Notes under the pieces: model-generated | What the model was told of the DNA's origin: nothing | Seen by the model: the letters and a program-made list of their open reading frames with translations, nothing else | The model's database searches: none | Source of the DNA: Pseudomonas phage HHBS36_1 | Direction: 5' to 3' (one strand) | Sequence record: PQ287642.1 | Length of the DNA stretch: 64,000 nucleotides | Shown: piece after piece, positions 12,960 to 13,433 of the stretch | Numbering within the stretch: the stretch's first letter is position 1 | Layout: every line of letters starts with the position of its first letter | Position numbers and translations under genes: made by a program

Positions 12960-13433
12960 TTAAGCAAGGGCCGCCATCCAGGGCGGTACTACGACCACCA
13001 TCTCGTTAGGGATATGACTACTGAACTTTTCTAATGTTTGTTTAACATCAGGCCATTTCAGCATGCCGTTTCCGCAACCGAGCGGTGGTACTACGATCTT
13101 CCACTTAGGGTCGATCCCATCTTCTACATCAATATTGTCGACTATCCATTGGAGGCCGTCATTGATATAGCTTAACTGCGAATCATCTTGCCAACGATCT
13201 TTCGTTGGGAACATCATGTAACGTTTACCATCATCGGCAAGATAGATGGTTGGGTTACCGATGGTGATGATTCGATACTTGCAATCATGTTTATATCTTT
13301 GATACAGTTCAGGGAACTTCTCACGGAAGCTTTCCGCTAAACCTGTACCCATTACGCCACGGGTATTAACAGTTATTAGGTAAAGATCCCCAGGCTCTTT
13401 AAAAATGTCTTTACCTATCACGAATTCAGCCAT
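12960..13433 (-). CDS. macrodomain protein, TARG1/DarG-like (157 aa from the ATG at 13433)
   Basis: MGTGLAESFREKF, RYMMFPTKDRW and PPLGCGNGMLKW match the TARG1/Poa1p-type macro motifs (MGAGIAxxFKxKF; RYIYYLITKK; PRIGCGLDRLQW). Strong aaggag RBS 7 nt upstream of the ATG. Confidence 0.6.
   Translation of the reverse strand: MAEFVIGKDIFKEPGDLYLITVNTRGVMGTGLAESFREKFPELYQRYKHDCKYRIITIGNPTIYLADDGKRYMMFPTKDRWQDDSQLSYINDGLQWIVDNIDVEDGIDPKWKIVVPPLGCGNGMLKWPDVKQTLEKFSSHIPNEMVVVVPPWMAALA

Follow-up and report, generated by a model that had tools for sequence, protein, structure and literature searches.

A stand-alone DarG2-type macrodomain, an AdfM ortholog and probable anti-DarT2 enzyme, in a phiKZ-like jumbo phage of Pseudomonas aeruginosa

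Described anti-DarT proteins of tailed phages

The closest described relatives of the protein considered here are gp104 of phage PhiKZ and gp108 of phage PhiPA3. Morgan et al. (Cell Rep 2026, PMC13309987) recognized gp104 as a DarG2-like macrodomain and named it AdfM (anti-DarT factor macro). PhiKZ AdfM strips ADP-ribose from an oligonucleotide that P. aeruginosa DarT2 has modified at TNTC, the N23A substitution lowers that activity, and DarT2 toxicity in E. coli is fully rescued by PhiKZ AdfM (PMC13309987). The protein is expressed late in PhiKZ, and AdfM localizes to the nucleus in PhiKZ, PhiPA3 and Erwinia phage Asesino (PMC13309987). On hosts with DarTG2 the titer of PhiKZ falls by 3–6 logs when AdfM is missing, and PhiPA3 without AdfM has a lower titer too; loss of AdfM on such hosts leaves more ADP-ribose on the DNA, reduces replication about 4-fold and blocks genome packaging (PMC13309987). 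Macrodomain homologs were reported in about half of the chimalliviruses, and the main text of that paper does not name phages PA1C or PS119XW (PMC13309987). The principle of an orphan antitoxin macrodomain inside the phage nucleus was thus already published in 2026.

Two other kinds of phage counter-measure against DarTG bear comparison with the protein described below. AdfN (T4 gp30.3 and other phage NADAR proteins) is likewise an orphan antitoxin catalytic domain that erases a DNA modification, but it has the NADAR fold, is specific for the guanine-ADP-ribose made by DarT1 and is inactive against DarTG2 (PMC11825919). AdfA of RB69/T4 and AdfB (ICP1 gp145) also counter DarTG; unlike our protein, however, they are thought to bind and inhibit DarT and not to act catalytically (PMC11481870).

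The adfM ortholog: gene, fold and active site

We analyzed a 64,000-nucleotide stretch of DNA from Pseudomonas phage HHBS36_1 (PQ287642.1), called the window in what follows. It shares 100% identity with Pseudomonas phage vB_PaeM_PS119XW and 99.9% with PA1C, both of which are ~300-kb jumbo phages of P. aeruginosa; a more distant relative, HPP-Temi, has been placed in the genus Pawinskivirus. The gene of interest and its landmarks are as follows.

12960..13433, minus strand: adfM ortholog, encoding a stand-alone DarG2-type macrodomain of 157 aa, a predicted DNA ADP-ribosyl glycohydrolase (from the ORF, Pfam Macro, DarG models, fold, gp104 identity and dN/dS)
13443..13448, minus strand: Shine-Dalgarno sequence AAGGAG, read from the sequence, with a 9-nt spacer to the ATG at 13433
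13365..13367, minus strand: codon of Asn23, equivalent to N23 of PhiKZ AdfM and N22 of T. aquaticus DarG; it falls on the TVN Asn of the DarG structures
13200..13202, minus strand: codon of Lys78 (FPTK), equivalent to the DarG catalytic Lys and to TARG1 K84; aligned to FPTK of 5m31/5m3i and ITKK of TARG1
13065..13067, minus strand: codon of Gly123, the residue that aligns with TARG1 Asp125; it belongs to the diphosphate-binding loop PPLGCGNG

Translation of the minus-strand ORF at 12960–13433 gives 157 codons and a stop. An automatic ORF list had extended the start to a TTG at 13499; we rejected this longer ORF in favor of the ATG at 13433, since AAGGAG stands 9 nt from that ATG, the N-terminal sequence MAEF is common to the window protein, PhiKZ gp104 and most homologs (90% or more of the 27 aligned sequences have M1), and the CDS deposited for the adfM ortholog of PA1C is likewise 474 nt long. 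A strong ribosome-binding site had been noted in the first-pass annotation of this DNA; the block AAGGAGCCATT upstream of the start is kept in PhiKZ gp104 and in the HPP-Temi ortholog. Two side observations concern this leader. An imperfect hairpin (13468–13483, minus strand) separates the 54-aa upstream gene from the ribosome-binding site of adfM, and at the equivalent site upstream of gp104 the hairpin of PhiKZ (CTAATGAGAAG...CTTCTCATTAG) is clearer; the longer block TTGTAG..AAGGAGCCATT ahead of the start codon is common to PhiKZ and the window.

The HPP-Temi ortholog is 89% identical in nucleotide sequence, with ~42 synonymous and 9 non-synonymous differences (dS 0.64, dN 0.025). The resulting dN/dS of 0.039 shows that this ORF codes for a protein and that the adfM ortholog is under strong purifying selection.

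The 157-aa product had been put forward as a TARG1/DarG-type macrodomain along its entire length. Family models show a similarity well above chance level: Pfam Macro (PF01661) matches residues 21–133, which correspond to profile positions 3–117 of 118 (E 5.7e-7; 29.9 bits against a gathering cut-off of 22), and DarG models match at ~1e-37 (NCBIfam DarG, NF048014, E 5.4e-37; PADLOC DarG, E 8e-38). The NCBIfam match covers only the macro half of the model (positions 7–148 of 338), and its 127.8 bits lie below the cut-off of 250. The best sequence matches in the PDB are DarG macrodomains, namely 5m3i (M. tuberculosis), 5m31 (T. aquaticus) and 7omu (a Thermosipho DarTG fusion), with E-values of 1e-22 to 9e-18 in a single-sequence search and 2e-37 when a 27-sequence profile was used, whereas human TARG1 gave 0.29 with the single sequence and 1.4e-9 with the profile.

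An AlphaFold model built from the 27-sequence alignment has a macro fold, with a pLDDT of 95.1 and a pTM of 0.90, so that the fold prediction suggested earlier as a check came out in favor of the assignment. A Foldseek comparison of this model with the PDB gave 207 matches at E<=0.001, the best 50 of which are either macrodomains or proteins designed on the macrodomain scaffold. The matches are headed by DarG of Thermus aquaticus and M. tuberculosis (TM 0.83–0.86, 32–35% identity), with DarG-ADP-ribose structures at TM 0.84–0.86 among them; they are followed by TARG1 (~20% identity, TM ~0.78–0.86) and then by a Bacteroides macrodomain and yeast Poa1p (14–19% identity for Poa1p, with a TM lower than that of DarG). 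Judged by sequence matches and the predicted fold, the window protein is a macrodomain nearest the DarG antitoxin macrodomains, then TARG1 and Poa1p. The earlier type assignment therefore holds as to the macrodomain clade, but of its two named members DarG is much the nearer (E 1e-22 versus 0.3), and the exact placement is DarG2 type rather than TARG1 proper.

The likeness to DarG2 (T. aquaticus 5m31/5m3e, M. tuberculosis 5m3i and Thermosipho 7omu) extends to the TVN..GVMGxG, FPTK Lys and PPLGxGNGGL loops; unlike DarG2, the window protein is encoded by a phage, has no C-terminal DarT-binding domain and has no DarT beside it. With human TARG1/OARD1 (C6orf130) and Poa1p it shares the macrodomain sub-fold, and the equivalent of TARG1 K84 is kept, but identity to TARG1 is only ~20% and the Lys84 plus Asp125 dyad is incomplete, D125 being replaced by Gly123. 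We rejected the protein as a TARG1 ortholog on the weak direct similarity and the absent D125; on sequence comparison, it and TARG1 are members of one clade and not orthologs. The substrates of TARG1 and Poa1p are protein-linked ADP-ribose and ADP-ribose metabolites.

The three motifs quoted in the first-pass annotation are all present, MGTGLAESFREKF at residues 28–40, RYMMFPTKDRW at residues 71–81 and PPLGCGNGMLKW at residues 116–127. It had been stated there that the catalytic Lys of TARG1 is conserved and that D125 has become Gly, and the profile alignment agrees, since FPTK pairs with ITKK and GCGNG pairs with GCGLD, so that D125 corresponds to G123; at this position the DarG structures carry Gly and TARG1 carries Asp. 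(TARG1 residue numbers, and the number K80 for the T. aquaticus DarG Lys, are our own count along the aligned sequences.) All 27 homologs have N23, K78, G123 and the Gly-rich loops without variation.

By BLASTP the protein is 63% identical end to end to PhiKZ gp104 (E 5e-79), for which we used the translation of the sequence printed in PMC13309987, and it is 67–68% identical to PhiPA3 gp108. The PA1C record annotates its adfM ortholog as similar to PHIKZ104. The three proteins are of similar length (157 aa, against 162 and 160 aa for PhiKZ and PhiPA3) and have the catalytic Asn, the Lys and the loops in common; in comparison with PhiKZ gp104, a loop near residue 102 is shorter by 5 residues in the window protein. 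Because the 63% identity runs over the full length and the synteny is conserved (below), these alignments identify the window protein as a syntenic, full-length ortholog of PhiKZ gp104/AdfM.

With the window protein as the query we also searched a phage database by tblastn and found DarG-like orphan macrodomains in 280 phage records, far beyond the nucleus-forming phages. They include phiEco32-like coliphages, Thermus phiMa, Sinorhizobium phiM12/phiN3, Morganella/Proteus T4-like phages and Streptomyces phages, and they are usually labeled 'phosphatase', 'Appr-1-p processing' or hypothetical.

Genome neighborhood, transcription signals and nuclear import

Upstream of the gene and on the same strand, the window keeps the PhiKZ order gp98, gp99, gp100, gp101, gp102, gp102.1, and the position of gp103 is taken by a 54-aa membrane protein. 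The window gene is in this respect like AdfM of PhiKZ and PhiPA3, which also stands after the gp98–gp102.1 virion block, in a phage with ChmA and PicA, and in the same host species. Downstream lie a gene for a 142-aa membrane protein (12457–12885), small hydrophobic ORFs and then homologs of PhiKZ gp10.1 to gp23, whereas in PhiKZ gp105 and the genes after it follow. A hydrophobic segment is present in seven of the nine neighboring small ORFs (47–142 aa, one strong segment each), which agrees with the membrane-gene neighborhood noted earlier. The gene had also been assigned to an accessory island. This fits only in part, for the gene ends the conserved virion block gp98–gp102.1 and stands at a synteny break beside variable small membrane genes. 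Relative to PhiKZ, the break at the adfM ortholog spans about 10700–14260 of the window.

None of the ten neighboring genes matches a family of known function. These ten encode either small membrane proteins or proteins resembling PhiKZ gp102, with no DarT-like family among them, and a tblastn search of the window with P. aeruginosa DarT2 as a single-sequence query gave nothing (best E 0.44).

The following signals lie between the gene and its downstream neighbors, or belong to the same sets of repeated elements.

12923..12949, minus strand: 12-bp hairpin (-18.5 kcal/mol, z -4.4) that starts 11 nt past the stop codon and probably terminates transcription of the late block
12920..12923, minus strand: TATG directly after the hairpin; it may serve the 142-aa gene at 12457–12885 as a late promoter/start of PhiKZ type
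1684, 2167, 2890, 4946, 6944, 12917, 19343, 37917, 43654, 44970, 51513 and 59299 (motif starts; n=12): hairpin plus CTTTATG(T/C)CG elements
12422–12438, 11259–11275 and 52485–52501, minus strand: exact copies of TTTAAANNNTATATTAC (5 matches at <=2 mismatches in the window, against 0.74 expected)

The terminator element that had been attributed to the gene is thus found as a hairpin of 12 bp, and none of 200 shuffled sequences folded as well. Its U-tract is short (UUUAUGU) and its tail is TTTATGTCG. A simple terminator scan did not list this hairpin, and direct folding found it; the scan missed it because the A/T runs on either side are taken up into the stem and the U-tract is short. The hairpin after gp104 in PhiKZ has another stem sequence and the same TTTATGTCG tail. 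Within the window the exact hairpin sequence is unique, but its architecture, a variable GC hairpin followed by CTTTATG(T/C)CG, recurs: CTTTATGTCG with at most one mismatch has 17 occurrences where 4.5 are expected, and in 12 cases it stands directly after a GC-rich variable hairpin. The published consensus for PhiKZ late promoters is TATG, with the start at the G (PMC4666361). Since the TATG core of these elements equals that consensus, they may combine a terminator with a late restart.

A different signal, TTTAAAGGCTATATTAC, is found at 12422–12438, downstream of the 142-aa gene; it matches the PhiKZ motif TATATTAC, which we take to be that phage's early-gene promoter. TATATTAC has been tabulated as a PhiKZ promoter motif (PMC7058600), and a sequence related to TTTAAAGGCTATATTAC also follows gp104 in PhiKZ. 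When positions 12000–14500 were used as a megablast query, each phage record showed a second matching place; inside the window, the sole further match to this stretch is a 26-nt early-promoter-like motif. The adfM ortholog therefore seems to be the last gene of a late transcription unit of virion genes, next to a region of early genes, and the arrangement suggests that the late/early boundary lies downstream of adfM, by the 142-aa gene. A position at the end of a late unit fits both the late expression reported for PhiKZ AdfM and the terminator remark of the first-pass annotation.

The import factor that would bring such a protein to its place of action is also encoded in the window.

60605..62239, minus strand: PicA/Imp1 ortholog (PhiKZ gp69), 544 aa, 50% identical to PHIKZ069 over 526 aa

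The ORFs near it are counterparts of PhiKZ gp67, gp68 and gp70 and of RNA polymerase beta-like subunits. A PA1C gene annotated as gp54 (chimallin/ChmA)-like maps ~7 kb past the end of the window, and because of this gene and the PicA ortholog the window phage is a phiKZ-like nucleus-forming chimallivirus. Import of gp104 in PhiKZ and PhiPA3 is PicA-dependent and species-specific, and is set by a surface patch within residues 77–95 (PMC11087766); the Q297K change in PicA lowers it. In our alignment the equivalent of Q297 is kept, as Q291 of the window PicA ortholog. The stretch 77–95 of the window macrodomain (TKDRWQDDSQLSYINDGLQ) is identical to PhiKZ at 10 of 19 positions and to PhiPA3 at 13 of 19; for comparison, residues 1–65 are identical at 51 of 65 and 47 of 65 positions, respectively. 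With only 10 of 19 residues of the patch identical to PhiKZ, import would have to use the diverged PicA that the phage itself encodes (50% identity to that of PhiKZ); if PhiKZ and PhiPA3 are a guide, this PicA would carry the window macrodomain into the phage nucleus. It is conceivable, but we think it unlikely, that the diverged 77–95 stretch and the diverged PicA make up a third orthogonal cargo-importer specificity, or else that the protein has broader substrates, such as non-DarT2 lesions on other bases, RNA or protein.

Predicted function and its alternatives

We favor, with a probability of roughly 0.85, the reading that this gene is the AdfM of a phiKZ-like nucleus-forming jumbo phage and that its product would act as an eraser of DarT2 lesions on phage DNA in the nucleus. 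Fold, DarG2 clade, catalytic residues, orthology and synteny, selection and import machinery were each established by computation, and from the published behavior of the orthologs we infer the activity and localization of the window copy. In the mechanism we envisage, the host DarT2 of a DarTG2 system would attach ADP-ribose to thymidines of phage DNA that is single-stranded; the macrodomain would hold this ADP-ribose by its Gly-rich loops (GVMGTG and PPLGCGNG) and would use Lys78, and probably Asn23 too, to cleave the thymidine-ADP-ribose bond; and the DNA so restored could serve replication and, above all, genome packaging. As in PhiKZ and PhiPA3, the protein would be made late, taken up in folded form by the phage's own PicA and work inside the phage nucleus. 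Counter-defense against DarT, which the first-pass annotation had offered as one of its two readings, is thus supported, both by the closeness to DarG and by orthology with gp104, for which an anti-DarTG2 role has been published (PMC13309987). Its other reading, a tuning of protein ADP-ribosylation, found no support in this analysis. The first-pass annotation did not include the phage nucleus, in which the ortholog acts once PicA has imported it.

Other known targets of macrodomains of the DarG/TARG1 clade are ADP-ribose attached to proteins or RNA and ADP-ribose metabolites, and as far as sequence goes the window protein may have such further substrates. The main target could be ADP-ribose on proteins or RNA, in which case the enzyme would undo the work of host defense transferases or regulate a phage-encoded transferase. 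The fold clade does include TARG1, a hydrolase of protein-glutamate and nucleic-acid ADP-ribose (TM ~0.78–0.86), and TARG1 has the catalytic Lys in common with the window protein. DarG is nevertheless far closer than TARG1 in sequence (E 1e-22 against 0.3), Gly replaces the second catalytic residue of TARG1, D125, and no ADP-ribosyltransferase was seen among the ten neighboring genes. Moreover, the ortholog acts on DNA modified by DarT2, and phages that lack it are impaired on DarTG2 hosts alone (PMC13309987). We therefore hold a protein or RNA target to be improbable.

An enzyme of ADP-ribose metabolites, either an ADP-ribose-1''-phosphate phosphatase or an O-acetyl-ADP-ribose deacetylase, seems less probable still. 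The window protein matches PHROG 335, which bears the label 'phosphatase', many of its phage homologs are annotated Appr-1-p processing, and Poa1p is among its fold matches; but these labels go back to the generic annotation of macrodomains, the similarity to Poa1p is distant (14–19% identity and a lower TM, against 32–35% identity for DarG), and the characterized ortholog has a defense-specific phenotype (PMC13309987). Finally, that the protein is a true DarG, the antitoxin of a phage-borne DarTG module, is suggested by its top family models, which are DarG, but it is effectively refuted because two defining features that we tested fail: the C-terminal DarT-binding domain is absent (the protein ends at 157 aa, and the match to the macro half does not reach the NCBIfam cut-off), and a DarT operon is missing, with no DarT-like neighbor and no DarT found in the window. 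The window protein is thus an orphan antitoxin-like eraser rather than part of a toxin-antitoxin module.

The family to which we assign this eraser, with its activity and role, was described in April 2026, and the window copy adds to it one ortholog whose activity is predicted. The PS119XW/PA1C lineage retains an intact and strongly constrained copy of adfM together with the importer. Clinical isolates of P. aeruginosa include carriers of DarTG2, and jumbo phages of the phiKZ kind are candidates for phage therapy; the presence of an intact AdfM in a phage helps to predict its host range on DarTG2-positive strains.
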